A stretch of DNA of 64,000 bases. Origin: a virus. Lineage: Duplodnaviria; Heunggongvirae; Uroviricota; Caudoviricetes. This document shows positions 400-62,667 of this stretch, piece after piece. The stretch is from IMG/VR virus record IMGVR_UViG_3300042891_002161; one strand, given 5' to 3'. A model generated the notes under the pieces. The model made no database searches and was not told the DNA's origin. It saw only the letters and a list, made by a program, of their open reading frames with translations. The first letter of the stretch is position 1, and each line of letters opens with the position of its first letter. The translations under genes and the position numbers were made by a program.

Positions 400-888
400 T
401 CATTTGAAATCTTCGTTGCTTCTATAATTACCTAAATTGATTGTATCAAATTCATCCATACCATCTTTACTTTTAATACCCATCTTTTTTAATACAGTAT
501 TTATAGGTCTTTCTGACCAATCATATTCGCTAGATTTATCATACTCTTTCTTATTATTTACAAATAATTTGGCTTCTTGGTGACCAGAACCACCAAAGTA
601 ATCAGTTGATATACTAGCGATAGTTTTATTTTTACCAAAGGCTCTTACATTAGGAATATGAGTAGTGGTTAAAATACCTTCTGGTAATTCAGTCCATTTT
701 ATTTCTTCGGAATTTTCTTTATTCTCTAAGACAGAGTTAATCTTTTCATTTCTTAACTCTGACTTATTCATTAAATATACGCTTATACAGTGTCCCATAA
801 TTTTGACAAAGATAAAATATAAAAGCCATTTGACAAAATAATATATAGAGTATATAAAAAAAATTATTATAGATGAGTATAATTTCAC
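400..888 (-). CDS. hypothetical protein
   Basis: 162-aa ORF. The first 30-40 residues are hydrophobic low-complexity and overlap the 5' end of the divergent gene at 873. The true start is probably an internal Met near 798 or 771. Confidence 0.4.
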   Translation of the reverse strand: MKLYSSIIIFFIYSIYYFVKWLLYFIFVKIMGHCISVYLMNKSELRNEKINSVLENKENSEEIKWTELPEGILTTTHIPNVRAFGKNKTIASISTDYFGGSGHQEAKLFVNNKKEYDKSSEYDWSERPINTVLKKMGIKSKDGMDEFDTINLGNYRSNEDFK

Positions 889-2531
889 TTTCTACTTTCA
901 CAGATATGTCTGGAGCAGCTACTCCATCATCCGGTATTTTAATAGGTTTAGACACATTAGACGGAAAACTTAAACAAAAAGATTCTTCTGGAGTCGTTAC
1001 TGAAATTGGCTCTGGTGCTGGTTCAGGATCAGCCGGTTCATCGGGTACATCAGGCTCGTCAGGCACATCAGGCTCGTCAGGCACAAGTGGTCTTGCTGGA
1101 TCAGCTGGACCAAGTGGATCAGATAGCGGTAACTCATTAAAATGGATATATGGTAATAGGACTATTAACGGTGAATTTGTATTAGGTAGTAATGACTTTA
1201 CACAATTAAATAATCAAGTTTTCATGAATAATTTTAGTCAAGTTGGTGACTCATCATCTTGGTTAGAATCCCTATCTGATTATAATATCTTATTTCCTGG
1301 TGCTACTTATATAAAAATATCAGAGTTAGTAAATCCTAACATATATGGTATTTATCAAATTACTGGTAATAATGATGATAGTCCATCAGTTTATAGAGGG
1401 TATGATATTACTAAGATTTCAGCTAATGGTACACCCACTGACGGTCTTGAATATTCAATCAGTTGGATTATAATGGGTCAAAATGGATCAAGTGGAACAT
1501 CAGGATCAAGTGGAACATCAGGTACATCGGGAATTAGTGGATCATCAGGTACTTCAGGAACTAGTGGATCATCGGGTACTTCAGGAGTGAATGGATCTTT
1601 CTTTGGTTCATCAGGAACTTCAGGAATTAGTGGATCATCAGGAACTTCAGGAATTAGTGGAACATCAGGATCATCAGGAACATCAGGAGTTGATGGATCA
1701 GGAACATCAGGAACATCAGGAATTAGTGGATCTTCAGGTACTTCAGGAGTTGATGGATCAGGAACATCAGGAACATCAGGAATTAGTGGATCTTCAGGTA
1801 CTTCAGGAGTTGATGGATCAGGAACATCAGGTACTTCAGGAGTTGATGGATCAGGAACATCAGGAACTTCAGGAGTTAATGGATCAGGAACATCAGGAAC
1901 TTCAGGAGTTAATGGATCGGGCACTTCAGGAACATCAGGAATTAGTGGATCATCAGGTACTTCAGGAGTTAATGGATCGGGCACTTCAGGAACATCAGGA
2001 ATTAGTGGATCATCAGGTACTTCAGGAGTTGATGGATCAGGAACATCAGGTACTTCAGGAGTTAATGGATCAGGAACATCAGGAACTTCAGGAGTTAATG
2101 GATCGGGCACTTCAGGAACATCAGGAATTAGTGGATCATCAGGTACTTCAGGAGTTGATGGATCAGGAACATCAGGTACTTCAGGTGTTAATGGATCTTC
2201 CGGAACTTCAGGTGTTGCCGGATCTTCTGGAACTTCAGGTGTTGCTGGATCTTCTGGAACTTCAGGTGTTAATGGATATACCGGAACTTCAGGTGTTGCC
2301 GGAACTTCTGGAACATCTGGAGTTGATGGTGTTAGTCCAATGGCTTTAACAGCGGGTGGATTTGCGGCTCTATGGGGTTTACCAGGAGGAGGTGAAGATT
2401 GTGTTATAGATGGTGTTGCTGGAACTTGGCAATTCTCAGCAGATCCAGGAGTAGGTGGTGTGGAAGGCGCTACATATTCATGTTTTGGACTTAGAATTTG
2501 TTGTGTGCCTAATAACTTCGGTGAGTCGTAA
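873..2531 (+). CDS. collagen-like Gly-X-Y repeat protein (putative fibre/fibril)
   Basis: 552 aa. There are two collagenous segments of uninterrupted G-S/T-S/T triplets (about 45 and about 83 triplets) with X-Y = SS/TS/IS/VD/VN and no proline. A roughly 110-aa globular domain lies between them. The C-terminal domain is Cys-containing and non-collagenous ([12 protein letters not shown]...[10 protein letters not shown]). Confidence 0.85.
1480..2340 (+). repeat. near-identical tandem nucleotide repeats (about 60-nt units) inside the collagen-like gene
   Basis: Units such as gttgatggatcaggaacatcaggaacatcaggaattagtggatcttcaggtacttcagga recur exactly at 1690-1760, 1760-1830, 1900-1970, 1960-2030 and so on. 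Confidence 0.8.
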
Positions 2532-5369: not shown

Positions 5370-5972
5370 TTATACTAAATCTTCAGCATCAGCTGGAAGA
5401 GTTATTCTAACAAGTTGTCTTTTAACATCTTCTTCTAATGGTAAAGACTCGTGAATGAATGTTGAATTACCCCAATATAAAGTATTACTCTTTAAGTTGA
5501 AGTTTTCCATTTTAGAAAGATCTAAATGTGAACAATCTCCACCTTGGTTTGGTTGACCTTCATAATCACCATTCCAACCTTTACAAGCTTCATAAGAAGA
5601 AACAATTAACATTCCACCTTTTTCAGAACAATATTGTTCTTCGTGTTTATCTCTTGGTAAAAATCTACCATCTTCTCCAGTTAACCAGCCGCTTCCGCCG
5701 CCACCCCATCCAAATAGATAGTTTCCATCAGTATGTGGTCCACCTCTTCTATGAGATTCACCTTTACTAACAATTTTTTCATCAATTGTTAAATATGCTT
5801 TACCTGTTTTCTTAGGTGAGCAATCAACAATCTCTTTAAGAACAGATTCCCATCTTTCATAACCTATTGGTAAAGTAGGATTCTCCATATCGAATTCGTG
5901 CATATAAACTCTATCACCTCTGTATTCTGGAAGAGATATCGGTTTAATCATTTTTGATTTACTTTTTAACAT
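5370..5972 (-). CDS. hypothetical protein, possible 2OG-Fe(II) oxygenase-like fold
   Basis: Candidate HxD (GGPHTDGNY) and a distal His (NSTFIHESLP) about 95 residues apart. The assignment is weak. Confidence 0.3.
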   Translation of the reverse strand: MLKSKSKMIKPISLPEYRGDRVYMHEFDMENPTLPIGYERWESVLKEIVDCSPKKTGKAYLTIDEKIVSKGESHRRGGPHTDGNYLFGWGGGGSGWLTGEDGRFLPRDKHEEQYCSEKGGMLIVSSYEACKGWNGDYEGQPNQGGDCSHLDLSKMENFNLKSNTLYWGNSTFIHESLPLEEDVKRQLVRITLPADAEDLV

Positions 5973-10048: not shown

Positions 10049-11713
10049 ATGTCAGACATGAAATATTTAATGTTATTTGAAGCTTTTGAATCCAATGCTT
10101 TATCAAAAATGATGACCTTTTTAGGTAACAAAGTAGATAATAATTCTAAAGGAAGATTCCAAGATAAATTAAAAAGATTAATTAGTAATTTTGATATTCC
10201 TATTGATAAAATAGTTGATAAAGATGTTAAGTATCTTAACAGAAATCAGGCTCTTAAATTAAAGAATGAAGAAAGATCTGATAGTGGTCTTTATTGTTTG
10301 AAATTTTGGTTTTCAATGGATGAGGGGTTTTTAGGATTTACAGGTACCGGAAATAGAACCATGGATTTTAATGAGTATCTTGAAGGTAATAGGAGAAGAA
10401 GAAGATCATCGGAAAAAAATGAACCTTTTAGTAATAAAGAATTAAATTATATTAAAAATGATTTAGATATTAAAACCGGAAAACTTACACCACTTAAAGA
10501 CTATGAGGATTTAAGACACGGTCAATTAGTTGTTGGTTTTTTTTCAGATGATGAAGATGATGAGTCAAGAATAGGATTGTCTAAAATTTGGAGAGATGGT
10601 AGTAGAATATTTGCTATACAAGATGTTGCTTCTGGTGGAACACCTGATTATGATGTAGATGGTGAATCATGGAGTGATTGGAGAAGTGGTAATCAATTTA
10701 GGTATTCTTGGTCATTGGACACTGTTGATTCGCCTGGTAATGATCATCACAAATTACATATTTATACACCATCAGATGAGCCTTTAAGAATAGAAGGTGT
10801 TAAAAAAGAAGAAGAAGAAGAAGAAGTTAAAGTATCAAGTCCATTTGACTTTAATCTACCATTAAATAGTAGTTATGAATTAAGAGAGTGGGGTGAAACA
10901 TCTTACTCAATAGATGAGTATAAAATGGTTGAAAATTCCGACTTTGCTATTGTTTTAATGATTGATGATATACTTAAATCTGTTAAAAAGAAAGTTACAC
11001 AACTTAGAACAGATAGATTAGAATTAAGACAAGGAGCTAGTAAACTAATGTCAGATGACCAAATTAAAACGGCTAATATTGAAAGATATTTAACTATTTT
11101 AATTAGTAAAATGGGTATTAAAAGTGATGTTAAAGAATTAAAAAATCTTCAAAAGTTAGTTATAAAGTCTATATGTAATGATTTTGCTTTTATTTCTATT
11201 TATAAAGGTAGACCAGGATTTGATGGCTTAAATAGTATAACCAGAGATATCTATAATATGATGAAAGTTGAAGATAAGAGTGATAAAGAATACTACTTAA
11301 AATCTATAATTAATAGATTCAAGTCATTAAATTCATCTTCAGAAGATTATATTAGAAGTTATATGCAGGGTCTTAAAATTATTAATGATAGTAATATAGA
11401 GCCAATTAAAGAACTATTCAAAATACTTATGAATATTGGTAAGAAAATAAAAGATTATTTACTATCTCAAAATATTCAAACGCTTGAAGATTTAAGAATG
11501 GTTATGGCTAAGTTAAAGTCTATTAATATTTTAGTAGGTGATGATGAATTTTCATTTAATGGATATACACGTTCTATTTTAAATGAGCTTCATTATGATA
11601 ATGATGTTAAATATTACATGAATGAATATAATGAAAGAAGAGAGCCACAAATTTTAGAAGATATTAAAAAGGCTAAACATATTGAAAGATACATTGACTC
11701 CTTATTGAGATAA
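10049..11713 (+). CDS. hypothetical protein with a CTS-like N-terminus, a poly-Arg run and a poly-Glu run
   Basis: 554 aa. N-terminus MSDMKYLMLFEAFESN. Contains RRRRR and EEEEEE runs. Confidence 0.6.
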   Translation: MSDMKYLMLFEAFESNALSKMMTFLGNKVDNNSKGRFQDKLKRLISNFDIPIDKIVDKDVKYLNRNQALKLKNEERSDSGLYCLKFWFSMDEGFLGFTGTGNRTMDFNEYLEGNRRRRRSSEKNEPFSNKELNYIKNDLDIKTGKLTPLKDYEDLRHGQLVVGFFSDDEDDESRIGLSKIWRDGSRIFAIQDVASGGTPDYDVDGESWSDWRSGNQFRYSWSLDTVDSPGNDHHKLHIYTPSDEPLRIEGVKKEEEEEEVKVSSPFDFNLPLNSSYELREWGETSYSIDEYKMVENSDFAIVLMIDDILKSVKKKVTQLRTDRLELRQGASKLMSDDQIKTANIERYLTILISKMGIKSDVKELKNLQKLVIKSICNDFAFISIYKGRPGFDGLNSITRDIYNMMKVEDKSDKEYYLKSIINRFKSLNSSSEDYIRSYMQGLKIINDSNIEPIKELFKILMNIGKKIKDYLLSQNIQTLEDLRMVMAKLKSINILVGDDEFSFNGYTRSILNELHYDNDVKYYMNEYNERREPQILEDIKKAKHIERYIDSLLR

Positions 11714-29432: not shown

Positions 29433-30176
29433 TTAAGCCAGTATTTTTAAAACAATATCTTCTGTAAACTCTCTCATATCATCAACACTAATTGTGTCAA
29501 TTGTATCTTTAGAAGAGTGACAGTTGTATAACATAGAAAAGTCTAAGTAAGTATTATCATCCCATTTAACTTGAGATTTACCTTCATTCAAAGGTGGAAT
29601 AGGATTAATAACACAAGAGTCAATTCCATTCTTTCTAAAAGTAACAGAATCGTTATAAGGAGTATTTGTGATAGGACAATCAAAGATTGATTTAATATGA
29701 TCCGATAGTTTACCAGGATAATTACCAATAAAGAAATACTTACCACCTTTACCAGTTAATTCTAAGTTAAGAACCCAGTCAATAGTGCCAAAATAACCTT
29801 CATTAATCTGTTCTGATGCTCTTTGAGAGCCTAAACCACCACATTCTTCACCATCTAAAAGAACAACGTTTATATGAGGCATTAACTTTTTAATTGATAT
29901 AGCATTAATAACAGATGCTGAGTTGTCGTTAGCATTATCAATGTGTGGATTACTAACATCGTGATGAGCAACCACCATTCTATCAGAGTCGCCTTTTAAG
30001 ATAAGATTATAACAAGTAGTTCCTCTTGACTGATAAGTATCTAACTCATAGTCAATATTCTCAGACTGTAAAAGATCCATAAGAAATTGTACCCTTGGTG
30101 TAGGTTTATCTTCATTTGAGTAAACACTACCAAAGTTTCTTACTTTACAAAAATCATATATCTTATTATACAACAT
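29433..30176 (-). CDS. M28-family zinc peptidase-like protein
   Basis: HHDV (HxD), NANDNSASVINAISI (the GxDDxxG(V/A) metal-ligand region) and LLDGEECGGLGSQ (the EE motif). Confidence 0.55.
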   Translation of the reverse strand: MLYNKIYDFCKVRNFGSVYSNEDKPTPRVQFLMDLLQSENIDYELDTYQSRGTTCYNLILKGDSDRMVVAHHDVSNPHIDNANDNSASVINAISIKKLMPHINVVLLDGEECGGLGSQRASEQINEGYFGTIDWVLNLELTGKGGKYFFIGNYPGKLSDHIKSIFDCPITNTPYNDSVTFRKNGIDSCVINPIPPLNEGKSQVKWDDNTYLDFSMLYNCHSSKDTIDTISVDDMREFTEDIVLKILA

Positions 30177-36778: not shown

Positions 36779-36913
36779 ATGCCTAATAAATTACAATTTT
36801 ACAACGATAGTGATGTTGGTTATGATCATGAGTGGTACTCAGATGAGTTAATTGAAGAAGTTAAAATAGAAGAACAAATAGAAGAAGATGAAAAAAAACC
36901 TAAAGAAGTATAA
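36779..36913 (+). CDS. possible small acidic ORF (44 aa) overlapping the start of the next gene
   Basis: ATG is 22 nt downstream of a TTAATATATAC motif. The product is MPNKLQFYNDSDVGYDHEWYSDELIEEVKIEEQIEEDEKKPKEV. Not in the ORF track (below its length cutoff). Confidence 0.25.
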   Translation: MPNKLQFYNDSDVGYDHEWYSDELIEEVKIEEQIEEDEKKPKEV

Positions 36914-37871
36914 TGACTTTATAAATGAGTCTTTAGTTGCTAAGCCAAAATTAACAAAACAATCACTTGATTTTATTATAAGTAGAGTTATTTTAAAAGT
37001 ACCAGGTACTGGTAAAGAAACTATACAAGAGTTAAGAGATGATTTTGAAGAGTCAGTAATTGCTATGTCTGATTTTTATCCTGGTTGGTTTTCTGATATG
37101 TGTAAAAGGAAAGATGCTAACCCTGAAGCTGATTATCAAGAAATGCAAAATTTGCTTAATAAAAAAGGTTGGGACTTTGAATCAATTAAAAACTTATTCA
37201 GCGAAGAAGCTAATAAATTAGTTGATAAAGATTTTGATGGTTGGTTTAATAGTTATGGACAAATAGGAAGTCAAAATGGTCACTGTGATGTTTATCTTTA
37301 TTTTACTGCTAAAAAATTAGGATTAAATGCTAATGATATTATTTCATTAGGTGGAGATGGATGGGCCTCTTATGCTGAAGGTGATGAGATGTACATCAGA
37401 TATAAATATGGTTATCATCAAACTAAATATGGTCAATTAATGTTAGATCAAATAGGTTATACAGTTGAACAATTTAGAGAAGAAGCTTTAGTTTATTTAC
37501 AACAAGATATTAAAGATAACTGGAGTGAGATGATATCATCAAGTGTTATGCGTAATGGTGTAATTAATAAAGTTCCAGTTAGAAGATCCGATTTAGGTGA
37601 TAATCTGATAAAAAATTTAACTTCTTTTTTAAGATCATCAATTCAAATTGAAGATTTTACTTTAGTTGAAGATGATAGAATGATTATATACACAAATGAA
37701 ATGGCTGATACTATTAATAAAGCTTTTCCAGATACAACAACATCAGAAGAAATGTCGGCTGGTATAGTTAAGTATTTAGAATGGGCCGGAAATGATACTG
37801 AAGAAGATGAAAGAATTGAAGTTATTGATGGTGATGTTGTCATTTGGGGTAAATTCAAAGTTGATTTCTAA
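36888..37871 (+). CDS. hypothetical protein with a CTS-like leader (MKKNLKKYNDFINES)
   Basis: 327 aa. Best match to the leader consensus. Confidence 0.6.
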   Translation: MKKNLKKYNDFINESLVAKPKLTKQSLDFIISRVILKVPGTGKETIQELRDDFEESVIAMSDFYPGWFSDMCKRKDANPEADYQEMQNLLNKKGWDFESIKNLFSEEANKLVDKDFDGWFNSYGQIGSQNGHCDVYLYFTAKKLGLNANDIISLGGDGWASYAEGDEMYIRYKYGYHQTKYGQLMLDQIGYTVEQFREEALVYLQQDIKDNWSEMISSSVMRNGVINKVPVRRSDLGDNLIKNLTSFLRSSIQIEDFTLVEDDRMIIYTNEMADTINKAFPDTTTSEEMSAGIVKYLEWAGNDTEEDERIEVIDGDVVIWGKFKVDF

Positions 37872-37918: not shown

Positions 37919-39034
37919 ATGATAATAAATCTTAAATCCGAAACTGAGTTATCTGGTTTCTACGTTGTATATGAAGGTTCAACTAATCTTGAGAAAAAAG
38001 GTTGGTTTGGTATCTCTCACTTAATGGAACATTTAATGTGTAAAAACTTTGACCATCTTCAAGAAGATTTTGACAAAGACGGCATTGATTGGAATGCTTA
38101 CACAAGTTCAAATGAAATTGTTTTTTATCTAACAGGTTTAGATGAAAAAGTAAATAAGTGGAAAGGTGAGTTTATGGACTTACTTGGTGAATTTAATGTT
38201 ACTAAAGAACAATTTGAAAATGAAAGAAACATTGTACTTGAAGAGTACATGGATTGTTTCAATGACCAAACTCAAACACATATGTTAAATCTTTCTCGTA
38301 AATTATTTGGTGATTATGATCCAATTGGGTTAAAAGAAGATTTAGAAAAATTAAAGTATATGGATTGTTTGAATTTCTTTGAACTTCAATATGCTAAGCC
38401 TACTAAGATTATTAACGTATCTAAAAACAAACCTTACAAAAACAACACTATTGATTTTGCTAAAAGAGATATTACAAAAACTTTAGAATTTGGTGAAAAT
38501 GATGTTCCTTTAGAATTGAGTAATGAGTTCAAAGACAAAACATCTATCGCAATTCTTTCTCCAGTGATTGAAGAAGATTTTGCTTATGTTCACTTTATTA
38601 ACGCAATGTTATCACTAGGTTTGAAGTCTCCTTTATATCAAGAAATTAGAGAGAAAAGAGGTTTAGTTTATTATGTACATTGTTATCAATCAAGAGTTAA
38701 TAATCAAGGTATCAATACTATCTCAACTCAAACTTCTAATAAAAACTACAATGGTGTAGTTGATGCGGTTAAAGAGGTAATTACAAACCCTGATAAGTAT
38801 TTAACAAAAGAAAGATTTGATTTAGTTAAGGATTACTATAAAGTAAGAATGGCTAAAGATGAGATTCTTAGATACAAGAATGTTAATCAATACATAAATC
38901 CTGAGGGTTGGTCAGTTTATGATATTTTAGATAAAGTTAATATGAAGAAAATCAAAGAAGTGTATAAGAAATACTATAATTTTGATAACTTTTATGTTTC
39001 TAATGATAAAAAAGAATTTAAAAAGTCCAGTTAA
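37919..39034 (+). CDS. M16-family (pitrilysin/insulinase-like) zinc peptidase
   Basis: Inverted zinc motif HxxEH in GISHLMEHLMCKNFDH near the N-terminus. A single M16 domain of 371 aa. Confidence 0.6.
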   Translation: MIINLKSETELSGFYVVYEGSTNLEKKGWFGISHLMEHLMCKNFDHLQEDFDKDGIDWNAYTSSNEIVFYLTGLDEKVNKWKGEFMDLLGEFNVTKEQFENERNIVLEEYMDCFNDQTQTHMLNLSRKLFGDYDPIGLKEDLEKLKYMDCLNFFELQYAKPTKIINVSKNKPYKNNTIDFAKRDITKTLEFGENDVPLELSNEFKDKTSIAILSPVIEEDFAYVHFINAMLSLGLKSPLYQEIREKRGLVYYVHCYQSRVNNQGINTISTQTSNKNYNGVVDAVKEVITNPDKYLTKERFDLVKDYYKVRMAKDEILRYKNVNQYINPEGWSVYDILDKVNMKKIKEVYKKYYNFDNFYVSNDKKEFKKSS

Positions 39035-53105: not shown

Positions 53106-53143
53106 AATTCTAAGAATTAAACTTTCTTTTTTAATAAAAGATA
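53106..53143. terminator. bidirectional terminator between convergent genes
   Basis: GAAAGTTTAATTCtaaGAATTAAACTTTCTTTTTT. Confidence 0.6.
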
Positions 53144-53830
53144 ACCAACCATTCCGGCGACATCTTTAGAGCAATTACCCATAGATTCAATTTTAGTTTC
53201 ATCGCCGGTTAACTTAATACCTGATAGTTTTTGTTTACCTAAGATTCTTTTCTCACCATTACACTTTTTACAAGGTGTTAAACCTACTTTACCTTTACCA
53301 TTACAGAAGTTACAAGAATCACCTTTATAGTCTTTACCTGAACCTTCACAGAAGTCACAACCATCATCAGCATCAAATGTTTTTAGAATATTACCATCAT
53401 TGTCTTTAATAACAATTTTGGCGGAAAGATCTTTACCTGTACCATCACAAGTTTTACATTTAACCCATCTTTCATATTCTAAAGTACCATCAAATTTATC
53501 ACCTATTGTAAGATAAATATCTAAAACTTCATTCTTCTTAAATTTTTCAAAATTTGACTTTTCTTTCTGATAATCAAAATCTATATTAACATCAAATAGT
53601 TCAAAGTATTCATTATAGTTATTACCAAATTTACTTTTAACATCATAGTCTTTTCTTTTTTCACCACAAAGAACATCATATGCCTCTGTCATTTCACCAA
53701 AAGTAACAGGGTTGCCACCTTTATCGGGGTGGTGAGTAAATGATAGTTTATAGTAAGCTTTCTTTATTACCTTTTCATCAGAGTTATTATCAACTCCAAG
53801 AATTGAGTAATAGTTTTTATTCAAATTCAT
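53117..53830 (-). CDS. DnaJ-type J-domain protein with CxxCxGxG zinc-finger repeats (short; no C-terminal substrate domains)
   Basis: J domain YYSILGV...AYYKLSFTHHPDKGG (HPD). Four CxxCxGxG repeats (CKTCDGTGKD, CDFCEGSGKD, CNFCNGKGK, CKKCNGEKR). Confidence 0.8.
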   Translation of the reverse strand: MNLNKNYYSILGVDNNSDEKVIKKAYYKLSFTHHPDKGGNPVTFGEMTEAYDVLCGEKRKDYDVKSKFGNNYNEYFELFDVNIDFDYQKEKSNFEKFKKNEVLDIYLTIGDKFDGTLEYERWVKCKTCDGTGKDLSAKIVIKDNDGNILKTFDADDGCDFCEGSGKDYKGDSCNFCNGKGKVGLTPCKKCNGEKRILGKQKLSGIKLTGDETKIESMGNCSKDVAGMVGYLLLKKKV

Positions 53831-54032
53831 AGAATCCTATTTCTTTTAATTTTTGTTTCATCTCTTGTTTATCTTTTACTTCACTAATAATATCACAAAC
53901 TTGGTGAGATATACCATCACACTCTATAATAAGAGCATCAGGCTTTGTTACATAGCCTATTAAGTAATCTAAGCCATTAGAAGCGGCTGATAATAAACTA
54001 CTTTTACTGATAAATCTTTTATTGAATCCCAT
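53817..54032 (-). CDS. small protein with a DUF559/Vsr-like endonuclease motif fragment
   Basis: DYLIGYVTKPDALIIECDGISHQ resembles the DF....lAIEvDG..H core. Confidence 0.3.
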   Translation of the reverse strand: MGFNKRFISKSSLLSAASNGLDYLIGYVTKPDALIIECDGISHQVCDIISEVKDKQEMKQKLKEIGFYEFE

Positions 54033-54318
54033 CTAATATTTGATTAATTTTCTTTTCTCTTAAAATTGATTTGTTTGTTTTTTCAAACTCACCTTTTTTA
54101 TCTTTATATCCACAATCATTACAAATACTTTGTGATGGAATAGTCGGTTTAGAACCATCTGTTGGTATAAAAAATTTCCATTTTATATTTTTACTTTTAC
54201 AATTAGGACAACCTGATAAATCTTCTATCGGCTTTATAAAGCCAGATTTTTGTAATTTTCCTAAATCATAAGTTTTATTATTTTGATTAGGAAATAAACC
54301 AAGTAATTTATTAATCAT
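54019..54318 (-). CDS. zinc-ribbon protein
   Basis: CPNC...(19 aa)...CNDC. The track start at 54342 overlaps rpsU, so an internal Met is the likely start. Confidence 0.4.
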   Translation of the reverse strand: MINKLLGLFPNQNNKTYDLGKLQKSGFIKPIEDLSGCPNCKSKNIKWKFFIPTDGSKPTIPSQSICNDCGYKDKKGEFEKTNKSILREKKINQILDGIQ

Positions 54319-54499
54319 TATTTCTGTATTTATCTTGAACATACTTAGCTTTGTTAATCTCAGCTCTTCTTTTTACAGATCTTTTAGTGAACTCTTTTCT
54401 ATCTCTTAATTCTCTAAGAGTTTTAGTTTTATCCCACTTTCTTTTAAGGGTTTTAAGAGCTTTCTCAATTGTTGTTCCTTCTACTTTTACTAATAGCAT
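54311..54499 (-). CDS. rpsU: ribosomal protein bS21
   Basis: MLLVKVEGTTIEKALKTLKRKWDKTKTLRELRDRKEFTKRSVKRRAEINKAKY parallels bacterial S21 M..V.V.....E.ALR.FKR.....G.L.E.RRRE.YEKP...RKR. Confidence 0.8.
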   Translation of the reverse strand: MLLVKVEGTTIEKALKTLKRKWDKTKTLRELRDRKEFTKRSVKRRAEINKAKYVQDKYRNND

Positions 54500-54565
54500 A
54501 TTAAAATCTTTTTTTATAGTTTATATATTTAATATATATACTTATATCTATAAAATATAACATAG

Positions 54566-56095
54566 TTGAAAATGATTAAAAAATATTCAGACTTCTTAAA
54601 CGAAAACTTAGAATTCATCATAGAATCTAATGTTGTTTATTCTGATAACTTCAGAAAAGCAATGACCAAAATTGAACACCCAATGGCTAAAGCTATTTTA
54701 GGTGTTGAAAACAATGATATTACGGTTCAGGCTAACTACCTTGATATTGAGTTTTCTAAAAATGATACAATTACTTTTACTCCTGATAGAAAAGCTCAAG
54801 AGATTTTAGGTGATACTAAAGAAGTAGTTAGATTCACTGGTTCTGGTGGTGGTTGGTTAAAACACAAAGACTCAAATGCTAAATTATTTACTCAATTAGG
54901 TTATACATTTGAAGAAGGTTCTGAGCCTTATAAACCAAATTCAAGAGATTTGGGTGAAATAGTTGCTAGAGTTACTTCTGAATCAAGTGGTAAAGTCTAC
55001 GCTTGGGTTAAATTCAAAGATAATTCAGGTAATGATGTTGGTAAAGGTGTTTATAATGTTGAGAAGTTAAGATCTGTTGATGAAAAACTTAAAAAAGTTT
55101 GGTCATCTAATAGACAAGAGGTTAAAGTAGGTAGAGCAATGAGAGCGCTTTTGAAAGCGGCTGGTGCTGAATTTACTGATAGAGATTTTGAACAATTTGT
55201 AAATTTATATAAAGCTACTATTGATAAGATGAATGATAAGTTTTCTTATATTGAAGTTGTTAGAGGTGGAGATATTGCTCACTGGTATCATGCTGAAAAT
55301 TACTTTCAAAGAAGTGGTACATTAGGTTCATCTTGTATGGCTGGTGCTCCAGATAGTTGGTTAGAAGTTTATACCGCTAATCCAGAAGTTGGTTTAGTTA
55401 TTTACAAATCAATGGATGATACTGAAAAGATTATTGGTAGAGCATTACTTTGGAAATTAAAAGATGGTAAAGAATTCTTAGATAGAATTTATACAGTAAA
55501 TGATTCTGATGTTCAATTATTTAGAGATTATGCTAAAGAAAATGGTTGGTACTATAAAGAACATAATAATAGCTCAGATAGTAGTAATGCTATAGCTCCA
55601 GATGGAAGTAGAGTTAGTTTAGACTTAACTGTTAATTTAACTGATGCTAGTATGGATAATTTTCCTTACTTAGATACACTTAAATATTTCAACCCAAGAA
55701 GAAAAACAATTTCAAATGAAGATACTGGTGGATGTTATTTCTTAGAAGATACAGGTGGTGATTATGTTAGACCTTGTGATACTTGTGGTGGATCGGGTAG
55801 AATGGAATGTGGAGATTGTGATGGAAACGGTGACCATCAATGTTCAGATTGTGATGGTGATGGAGAAGTTGATTGTGGTGAGTGTGATGGCTCTGGTAAA
55901 GAAGAATGTTCAAACTGTAGTGGATCAGGAGAAGTAGACGGTGAATCTTGTGGAGATTGTGAGGGAACAGGACAAGTTAATTGTTCTTCTTGTGATGATA
56001 AAGGTAAAATAGAATGTACATCTTGTGACGGAGATGGTAGAGTAGAATGTGGTGAATGTGGTGGTAGAGGACAAGTAGATTGTTACGACTGTTAA
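54566..56095 (+). CDS. CTS-leader protein with nine C-terminal CxxCxGxG (DnaJ-type) zinc-finger repeats
   Basis: N-terminus MKMIKKYSDFLNEN. The C-terminal 100 aa are CDTCGGSG, CGDCDGNG, CSDCDGDG, CGECDGSG, CSNCSGSG, CGDCEGTG, CSSCDDKG, CTSCDGDG and CGECGGRG. Confidence 0.7.
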   Translation: MKMIKKYSDFLNENLEFIIESNVVYSDNFRKAMTKIEHPMAKAILGVENNDITVQANYLDIEFSKNDTITFTPDRKAQEILGDTKEVVRFTGSGGGWLKHKDSNAKLFTQLGYTFEEGSEPYKPNSRDLGEIVARVTSESSGKVYAWVKFKDNSGNDVGKGVYNVEKLRSVDEKLKKVWSSNRQEVKVGRAMRALLKAAGAEFTDRDFEQFVNLYKATIDKMNDKFSYIEVVRGGDIAHWYHAENYFQRSGTLGSSCMAGAPDSWLEVYTANPEVGLVIYKSMDDTEKIIGRALLWKLKDGKEFLDRIYTVNDSDVQLFRDYAKENGWYYKEHNNSSDSSNAIAPDGSRVSLDLTVNLTDASMDNFPYLDTLKYFNPRRKTISNEDTGGCYFLEDTGGDYVRPCDTCGGSGRMECGDCDGNGDHQCSDCDGDGEVDCGECDGSGKEECSNCSGSGEVDGESCGDCEGTGQVNCSSCDDKGKIECTSCDGDGRVECGECGGRGQVDCYDC

Positions 56096-56105
56096 AAATA
56101 TATTA

Positions 56106-56143
56106 AAAAGAAAAAGCCTCTGAGAAATCAGAGGCTTTTTTTA
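56106..56143. terminator. rho-independent terminator (bidirectional)
   Basis: AAAAAGCCTCTGAgaaaTCAGAGGCTTTTTTT. Confidence 0.7.
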
Positions 56144-56431
56144 TATTCCTAAATCTTTTAATCTTTTTTGTCTAATAATTTGCTTTAATGAGTGTGTATC
56201 ATAAATACTACATCCGTATTTTTCTAAACAATACAAATTTATACTTTCATCAAATTTATTATAATTAAAACCACTTACTTTATTCTTGAGTAATAATTCA
56301 TATAATTTGACTGAATATTGTTTCTCACTATCTCTAGCTATAGCCGCCTTCTCATATTTTTGAGAACTAATGGCTTCCTTCTTATCTTTCTTAGCGTTAA
56401 GATATAATTCTAATAAATTATCAATTTCCAT
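56141..56431 (-). CDS. hypothetical protein
   Basis: 96 aa. Overlaps the upstream gene by 11 nt. Confidence 0.45.
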   Translation of the reverse strand: MEIDNLLELYLNAKKDKKEAISSQKYEKAAIARDSEKQYSVKLYELLLKNKVSGFNYNKFDESINLYCLEKYGCSIYDTHSLKQIIRQKRLKDLGI

Positions 56432-61707: not shown

Positions 61708-62667
61708 TTATTTTAATTTTATATGTATGTAAACATAATATGATGTTGGTTTAAGACTGATTAAAACTTTACCACCCCATCTCTTAGTCATTACCCAAGT
61801 AGTGAAGTTATTTTTAATATTCATAAACTCACCTTCATCAAATTTACCGTTGTCCCATTTACCTAAACCTTTATATCCAAATGAAATAATCTTATCTTGA
61901 ATTTTCACAACATCTTTTGATTCGTGATACCCTGGATTAAATCCTTTCATATCTAATTTAATCTTACCTAATGTCATTAAATCCACTAAACTTAAATTAA
62001 CTAATTCTTTCTTTAATGAATGAGCTGATTTAGATTCAATTTGACAGATCCATTTAATAACAGATTGATTCAACTTAAATTGACCAATTGGTGTTGGTAC
62101 ATCATAATGTAAACCATATTCAAAGTTACCATCACATTTGATACCAAAGTATAAATCAACTTCATTCTTTTGATAATCAACATGGTCTAAGTATCTACTT
62201 AAAGATTTGAATCTTGAAAATACTTGTTTAACATCTTCTGATTGTAAATTAGGATAGTAATAGTATAATAAAAAGTCATCTGGAGATTTAGACCAATTAG
62301 GTCCTAATTCTTTTTGACCTAAACTGGTTAAAGCTTTTAAGAAAGAAGTAAATATACCTTTACCAGCAACTGTAATTTCTGATTCAGTTAATTCTTCTAA
62401 ATCAGTTGAAACTAAGAACTCAGGTTCTTTTTCTTCAATACCATTTTGTAAGTAATTATCAATTTGATATTTAATTTCAGATTGAATTCTCTCATCTAAG
62501 ATATTAATAGCATTTGATAAGTCAATAGAAGCGTCAGAATCTTTCGTATAACGAGCTACTATGTTTCTAACATATTCATCAGATATTAAAGATTCAACCC
62601 ACTCACCAAGTGAGTTAAATCCATTAATTTGACTTTCTTTTATGAAATCTAAGTATCTTTTAATCAT
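61708..62667 (-). CDS. hypothetical protein, CTS-like leader (MIKRYLDFIKES)
   Basis: 319 aa. A TTTAATATATAAAC motif lies upstream at 62672-62690 (rc). Confidence 0.55.
   Translation of the reverse strand: MIKRYLDFIKESQINGFNSLGEWVESLISDEYVRNIVARYTKDSDASIDLSNAINILDERIQSEIKYQIDNYLQNGIEEKEPEFLVSTDLEELTESEITVAGKGIFTSFLKALTSLGQKELGPNWSKSPDDFLLYYYYPNLQSEDVKQVFSRFKSLSRYLDHVDYQKNEVDLYFGIKCDGNFEYGLHYDVPTPIGQFKLNQSVIKWICQIESKSAHSLKKELVNLSLVDLMTLGKIKLDMKGFNPGYHESKDVVKIQDKIISFGYKGLGKWDNGKFDEGEFMNIKNNFTTWVMTKRWGGKVLISLKPTSYYVYIHIKLK

Follow-up and report, generated by a model that had tools for sequence, protein, structure and literature searches.

The Locus

Within a 64,000-nucleotide stretch of virus DNA (IMG/VR record IMGVR_UViG_3300042891_002161; the whole stretch is hereafter "the window"), we examined an open reading frame (ORF) on the plus strand at 54566–56095, the target, whose product carries a short N-terminal leader, a conserved core domain and a C-terminal array of cysteine motifs of the kind found in the chaperone DnaJ. 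The ORF was confirmed, and its start was set at the ATG at 54572 instead of the TTG at 54566 because more than 100 full-length homologues, at 50–94% identity, open with MIKKY or MIKRY, which gives a product of 507 amino acids (Table 1). With a promoter-like box of its own and a strong terminator hairpin, the gene looks monocistronic from its flanking sequence. What is new at this locus is the combination of known elements—a cysteine-rich (CR) zinc finger and a capsid-targeting sequence (CTS)—on an undescribed family.

The region shares ~72% DNA identity and synteny with the 642-kb uncultured phage LR756502, and LR745206 is also related. Genomes of the LR756502/LR745206 type are the >630-kb "Mahaphage" genomes, with Bacteroidetes as predicted hosts (PMC7162821; PMC9723777). 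Judging from this likeness, the window belongs to a group of >600-kb Bacteroidetes megaphages related to LR756502, and that genome was examined over its full sequence for the leader motif described below.

The Leader, the T4 Capsid-Targeting Sequence and the Scaffold Repeat

The leader of the target begins MIKKYSDFLNE, follows the pattern K-K-Y-x-D-F-[IL]-x-E-[NS]-L, and is predicted as a detached helix at residues 2–17, at low confidence (AlphaFold2, AF2; predicted local distance difference test, pLDDT, ~50). A preliminary description of this DNA had called the leader CTS-like, and this reading holds well: the leader is real and portable, standing at the head of two window ORFs unrelated to the target, and it matches the T4 CTS, MKTYQEFIAE (PMC8442874). 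Both the T4 CTS and the leader are tags of ~10 residues at the extreme N-terminus (K-x-Y-x-[DE]-F-[IL]-x-E), both end in a Glu of the kind cleaved by gp21-type proteases, and both head otherwise unrelated proteins. T4 gp22 itself starts MLKEQLIAEA, near the CTS. In T4 the CTS was described for internal proteins IPI–III (Mullaney and Black, 1996, as cited in PMC5694885; PMC8442874), and head proteases of the T4 family cleave after Glu (PMC5694885).

The tag recurs across LR756502. Its strict form occurs 21 times among all ORFs of that genome, with 17 occurrences falling within the first 22 residues, while a broader motif, [YF]x[DE][FY][ILVM]xE, is found 34 times in the proteome (14 N-terminal, 11 in the head-maturation protease and nine elsewhere). 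Tagged proteins in LR756502 include an Acb1-like 2H phosphoesterase, a DHH phosphoesterase and an S-adenosylmethionine (SAM) methyltransferase, and related loci encode a tagged T4 Rnl1-type RNA ligase and a tagged GH108 lysozyme. As a set, these resemble counter-defence and entry functions, and it is plausible that they are first-strike cargo.

The same motif sits inside the head module of the relative. LR756502 encodes, in T4 order, a Portal_T4 protein (1.3e-57), a head-maturation protease and a Gp23 capsid protein (3.7e-28), i.e., the portal, protease and capsid protein are of T4 type. The protease (225272–227371, also L055:25272–27371; 699 amino acids; phrog_207 at 6e-28, weak Peptidase_S77) contains ~10 tandem 14-residue repeats of NIxYSEYIAENLDK, which are visible at the DNA level as 9.7 copies with a 42-nt period. 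All 80 of 80 related proteases on viral contigs carry 9–12 copies (consensus YSEY[IL]AENLDK), and target orthologues are present on three of these 80 contigs. The leader thus looks, at the level of sequence, like one unit of the scaffold repeat, with leader and repeat alike resembling the T4 CTS. A tag motif repeated ~10 times inside the protease/scaffold distinguishes LR756502 from T4, for which we found no such description.

The DNA upstream of tagged genes bears on capsid targeting and also on a different explanation, in which the target is a cytoplasmic protein that is never packaged and the N-terminal motif helps near-leaderless mRNAs to be translated efficiently, mediates coiled-coil self-association or is recognized by a phage peptidase (e.g., the M16 enzyme of the window). 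The promoter-like box AATATATA lies 5' of 12 of 17 leader genes in LR756502, versus 184 of 900 other genes (p 1.5e-5), and also 5' of all three head genes (3/3), which speaks for head cargo. Distances between box and ATG cluster around −12 and around −27 to −37, and the −12 class would imply nearly leaderless mRNAs. In 10 of the 17 tagged genes the box stands 4–8 nt from the ATG, which would leave very short 5' untranslated regions, an identical box serves the operon of ribosomal protein S21 next to the target, an M16 peptidase gene adjoins a tagged gene, and a family member in Cellulophaga phage phi38:1 (gp037) lacks structural annotation. However, a close box is missing from the other seven of the 17, the motif is conserved as amino acids (at the Y, F, acidic and Glu positions), and a purely translational role leaves unexplained both its likeness to the T4 CTS and its use as the repeat unit in the head protease/scaffold. 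We regard an unpackaged, cytoplasmic protein as unlikely, and capsid targeting, with the tag then cut off after E11 or E18, as the best-supported function that the leader sequence suggests.

Boxes of the AATATATA type number 23 in the window, most of them just 5' of gene starts, and the form (T)TTAATATATA precedes about 20 window genes (e.g., at 54531, 54529 (−), 62679 (−), 48377, 43528, 18792 and 10037). Looser tag-like N-termini occur on the box-preceded ORFs 10049–11713 (+), 29433–30176 (−) and 5370–5972 (−), which read MSDMKYLMLFEAFES, MKNLKTFEAFNN and MKHLQKFNEK; from their sequence, they could be leaders that have diverged.

The Core Domain Defines a Large Phage Family

The strongly conserved part of the protein is its core (residues 166–398), which is modeled with high confidence (pLDDT >90 in the AF2 model). 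Near-invariant across 150 divergent family members are Y239, Y244, S254-C255-M256, Y267, N270, R290, W294, D304-R305-x-Y307, K329 and P365-Y366-x-D368, several of which lie on a predicted strand (301–308), helix (311–323) and strand (327–329). In GNAT enzymes, a strand-helix-strand of that kind holds the cofactor and catalytic residue site. The core drew a series of GNAT matches, with a weak likeness of fold, and the target has no Pfam GNAT match. Moreover, when its sequence is set against the AF2 secondary structure, the acetyl-CoA pyrophosphate loop Q/R-x-x-G-x-G/A expected after strand 4 is absent (residues 308–314 read T-V-N-D-S-D-V), and the target core has a near-invariant Cys whereas the GNAT fold has none. 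Conservation and model together suggest that the core is probably an enzyme or a ligand-binding domain, i.e., an effector, with its chemistry unassigned.

A profile of residues 165–398 matches 5,064 clusters at 50% identity (E ≤ 1e-3), 1,464 of them at ≤1e-30. The core thus defines a very large phage family (>5,000 clusters) that lacks Pfam, NCBIfam or PHROG annotation: no model in Pfam, NCBIfam or PHROGs matches residues 1–400 of the target, nor the longer family members, and sequence profiles run against the PDB matched the zinc tail only. This bears out the preliminary description's statement that it knew of no described equivalent, here for the N-terminal 400 residues. A match to Frataxin/CyaY (PF01491) was rejected as spurious (17.5 bits against a cut-off of 21.3, with only 3 of 52 homologues matching). 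A scan of bacterial and archaeal genomes with three short conserved motifs confirmed no relative, and a single-sequence scan with a family paralogue that adjoins a phage DnaK gene gave no matches.

Cellulophaga podophages (phi38:1 gp037) and a Thermus phage also have members. LR756502 encodes seven paralogues, of which five are leader-tagged; one of the seven has 21 CxxC motifs (136423–138378). In phages with an orthologue at 45–49% identity (loci L014, L016–L019 and L021–L025), the family is found as tandem gene pairs.

A Zinc-Finger Array of Variable Length

The C-terminal array (residues 402–507) holds 20 of the 22 cysteines of the protein, is acidic (pI 4.05), and contains ten CxxC motifs with successive spacings of 11, 11, 11, 11, 14, 11, 11, 11 and 11 residues. 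The preliminary description had counted nine CxxCxGxG units, which is nearly right: eight are strict, one is degenerate (CSSCDDKG) and a terminal CxxC (CYDC) completes ten half-sites. Its assignment of the repeats to the DnaJ zinc-finger type, in an unusually long array, is borne out by a family profile search that matches the DnaJ CR domain (1exk, E 2.6e-6) and BSD2. Pfam BSD2_CRD was matched at E ≤ 0.01 by 33 of 52 homologues; the target itself scores below the cut-off (16.7 bits versus 27), and PF00684 was not reported for it in the Pfam scan.

The array is not a chance arrangement, because it is conserved across hundreds of homologues. No tandem repeat was found in the DNA beneath it, which rules out that the repeats arose recently at the DNA level; the array is old and maintained by selection on the protein. 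Exact symmetry about one longer central linker characterizes 173 of ~205 homologue arrays, with layouts of 5+5 motifs in 107 homologues, 4+4 in 37, 6+6 in 15, 3+3 in 10, 7+7 in two, and 8+8 and 2+2 in one each. The odd-numbered halves, and the gain and loss of motifs in pairs, one per half, argue for a DnaJ-type hairpin and against the pairing of adjacent motifs. From this layout we infer that the tail is a hairpin ladder of five Zn(Cys)4 rungs, in which motif i pairs with motif 11−i.

The comparison with solved CR domains supports this geometry and also sets the target apart. The target has the CxxCxGxG motif in common with the CR domains of DnaJ (PF00684; PDB 1EXK) and BSD2 (PF25436; PDB 6EKB), and the symmetry of its array agrees with the DnaJ hairpin, where one zinc site is made by the outer pair of motifs and the other by the inner pair. 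However, DnaJ has four motifs and two zinc centers (1 with 4, 2 with 3) where the target has ten half-sites and five putative sites; the target array keeps a strict 11-residue period, and homologues have anywhere from 2 to 8 rungs; the target array forms a free C-terminal tail, whereas that of DnaJ is an insertion in C-terminal domain I; and the target chain lacks the J domain of DnaJ. A zinc hairpin that can vary in length in this way would amount to a new and tunable version of the DnaJ cysteine-rich fold.

Not every family member has the tail: four or more CxxC motifs stand at the C-terminus of 84 of 148 family representatives, the others ending in short acidic tails or different extensions, and leader and zinc tail occur independently of each other. 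Most likely the tail is an arm that binds proteins, or a spacer, and not a device specific to DnaK.

That BSD2 is the nearest solved relative of the tail lends some weight to a head-assembly factor, in which the tag recruits the protein into the scaffolding core, the zinc array chaperones a very large capsid as BSD2 does Rubisco, and the protein is broken down or driven out before the DNA is packaged. The evidence from tag and scaffold repeat applies equally to such a factor, and the family has multiplied in megaphage genomes, reaching its seven copies in LR756502. Yet the other tagged proteins (the RNA ligase, the Acb1-like and DHH phosphoesterases and the lysozyme) suit the next host cell, not a prohead; leaderless members exist in small podophages that lack T4-type heads; and strong conservation resides in the core domain, not in the zinc tail. 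We consider an assembly role rather unlikely.

Chaperone Genes Near the Target and Its Relatives

Upstream of the target, a divergent string of four overlapping genes begins with S21 and ends with a J protein (Table 1), which is apparently co-transcribed with the phage S21, an unusual arrangement. The J protein was presented in the preliminary description as the neighbor of the target; it is genuine (J domain PF00226, E 8e-16; HPD within HHPDKGG; four CxxC motifs) but not an immediate neighbor, being the last gene of this minus-strand string. The accompanying statement that it has no substrate-binding domains calls for correction: its match to the DnaJ model reaches position 218 of 354, so that CTD-I-like flanks on either side of the zinc fingers are retained and only the distal C-terminal part is missing. 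The target itself has no match to PF00226.

These neighbors are the starting point of a third alternative, namely that the target works with Hsp70, its DnaJ-like array holding clients or contacting DnaK together with the truncated J protein or a phage DnaK. Beyond the DnaJ/BSD2 type of the tail, this draws on position: the J-domain gene lies ~0.7 kb away in an operon that diverges from a common 72-bp region, and in LR756502, as in 12 of 14 loci of one clade (two of them with dnaK inverted), a paralogue without a zinc tail adjoins a phage DnaK. A full-length dnaJ (353–363 amino acids) often follows ~5 genes beyond this pair. As a rough, post hoc estimate, the chance that two paralogues would lie so close to three chaperone genes is ~0.02.

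Wider sampling weakens the association. Among 47 related loci, only five have an orthologue of the J protein less than 10 kb from a family member, all of them in close relatives, and target orthologues at 45–56% identity have different gene neighborhoods, a synteny record that rules out the J protein as an obligate partner. Among 80 DnaK-bearing viral contigs, a family member lies within 10 kb in only 11 and is adjacent in only five, nearly all from the closest clade; the DnaK adjacency looks like clade-level synteny, a hint rather than evidence of a module. Furthermore, the target is monocistronic and has no J domain, the family can do without the zinc tail, which is missing from the DnaK-adjacent paralogue itself, and CR-type fingers are known outside chaperones (e.g., anti-TRAP and the HMO-2011 DNA polymerase). 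We consider a partnership with Hsp70 quite unlikely. The preliminary description's proposal that the genes manipulate DnaK or chaperones fares no better, given a monocistronic target, a J gene that belongs to the S21 operon, an optional tail and a DnaK adjacency at clade level. As for the phage-delivered module that it envisaged, the delivery is supported by the T4 CTS match, the T4-type head module of the relative and its ~10 protease repeats, whereas the module with the J protein is not.

A Proposed Capsid-Targeted Effector

We propose, at about even odds (probability ~0.5), that the target is a capsid-targeted, probably ejected protein that joins an effector core of unassigned chemistry to a five-rung DnaJ-type zinc hairpin. 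Under this proposal, the first 11–18 residues would serve as the local version of the T4 CTS, copying the 14-residue protease/scaffold repeat. The tag would dock the target into the scaffolding core during prohead assembly, a gp21-type protease would remove it after Glu (at E11 and/or E18), and the mature protein would be kept in the head and reach the host cell with the DNA. The N-terminal domain and the weakly GNAT-like core, conserved as they are, would be the working part, while the ten half-sites may fold back DnaJ-style into a thin, acidic rod that would bind zinc at five rungs. Homologues would change this rod by whole rungs or swap it for an acidic tail.

Precedents for such cargo exist in other giant phages. 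SPN3US, phiKZ and 201phi2-1 carry multi-protein head cargo, including paralogous families, with N-terminal propeptides cut after Glu by a T4-related prohead protease (PMC5694885). Those propeptides are mostly >100 residues long and are cut at A/S-x-E, whereas the target leader has 11–18 residues, and we found no sequence relationship between the target family and the head proteins of these three phages. The internal proteins of T4, for their part, are small and basic, whereas the target is larger and acidic.

Several points weigh against packaging and ejection. The leaderless family member phi38:1 gp037 bears no structural annotation. With a pI of 4.65, the target is unlike the basic T4 internal proteins. 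The head module and the repeat-bearing protease are seen in relatives; the 64-kb window does not span the head module. In LR756502, two tagged ORFs (580926–581384 (+) and 395896–396258 (−)) have a signal-peptide-like hydrophobic segment right after the tag, one with a lipobox-like LLATAC, which is odd for head cargo. Finally, the pairing of the rungs is drawn from the symmetry of the array and from the DnaJ/BSD2 precedent.

If the tag is indeed a capsid-targeting signal, it would provide a sequence-only list of the proteins that a >600-kb phage delivers, several of which look like counter-defence enzymes. The match between tag and scaffold repeat also suggests that tags act by mimicking a scaffold unit, which yields a testable design rule for loading foreign proteins into phage heads. 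In a bolder form, one scaffold-derived tag would address an arsenal to the capsid (RNA ligase, Acb1-like and DHH phosphoesterases, lysozyme, methyltransferase and the seven paralogues), and the zinc ladder would recruit host or phage Hsp70 to refold the effector after passage through the tail. We think this extension rather improbable, yet it would explain why paralogues lie beside dnaK and J-protein genes, and sequence alone would then suffice to list the proteins that an uncultivated phage injects.

Feature Coordinates and Other Window Genes

TABLE 1. Positions of the target, its parts and associated features (window coordinates unless another sequence or locus is named).
Feature	Position	Strand	Basis or remark
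Coding sequence, 507 amino acids + stop	54572–56095	+	Homologue N-termini
Promoter-like box AATATATA, context TTTAATATATATAC	54531–54538	+	33 nt 5' of target ATG
Second copy of the AATATATA box, serving the S21 operon	54522–54529	−	Back to back with the target's box
Bidirectional intrinsic terminator hairpin, AAAAAGCCTCTGA...TCAGAGGCTTTTT	56111–56140	.	Between target and convergent gene 56141–56431
N-terminal leader MIKKYSDFLNENLEFIIE, residues 1–18, CTS-like amphipathic helix	54572–54625	+	Candidate protease sites after E11 and E18
N-terminal region, residues 19–165: alpha/beta part, then SH3/KOW/Tudor-like beta-barrel (~residues 125–170)	54626–55066	+	
Conserved core domain, residues 166–398, weakly GNAT-like alpha/beta fold	55067–55765	+	
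C-terminal zinc-finger array, residues 402–507, 10 CxxC half-sites, 5+5 around central linker	55775–56092	+	Motif spacing
Second tagged ORF, unrelated to target, MKKNLKKYNDFINES...	36888–37871	+	Leader motif; adjoins M16 peptidase gene
Third tagged ORF, unrelated to target, MIKRYLDFIKES...	61708–62667	−	Leader motif; AATATATA box 4 nt before ATG
Divergent four-gene string: S21 (54311–54499), TackOD1-like Zn-ribbon protein (54019–54342), 71-residue protein (53817–54032), J protein (53117–53830; 237 residues)	53117–54499	−	
Tagged Acb1-like 2H phosphoesterase	LR756502 473773–474312	−	
Tagged DHH phosphoesterase	LR756502 91808–94084	−	
Tagged SAM methyltransferase	LR756502 63708–64268	+	
Tagged T4 Rnl1-type RNA ligase, related locus	L029:14286–15551	−	
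Tagged GH108 lysozyme, related locus	L004:1116–2126	+	
Phage DnaK (Hsp70, E 1e-138 to E. coli DnaK)	L060:44282–46165	+	Loci L029–L037, L042, L043, L047, L049, L050
Zinc-tail-less paralogue beside DnaK	L060:46224–47447	−	Same loci as DnaK

The window has a G+C content of 27–38% and carries phage-style genes for a sigma factor, an NAD-dependent ligase, an S1-domain protein, ribosomal protein S21 and an SbcC-like ATPase, along with very large fibre-like ORFs. The M16 peptidase gene (insulinase/processing-peptidase family; 37919–39034 (+)) lies directly 3' of the second tagged ORF, and an M28 peptidase is also encoded (29433–30176 (−)). A BLAST match of the target to ORF 873–2531 (+) was rejected as compositional, that ORF being a collagen-like, Gly-rich repeat. 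Preceded by a AATATATA box, it encodes 552 amino acids with a long collagen-like Gly-X-Y/GSSGTSG repeat (PF01391, E 6e-26), and its product is probably a fibre protein.

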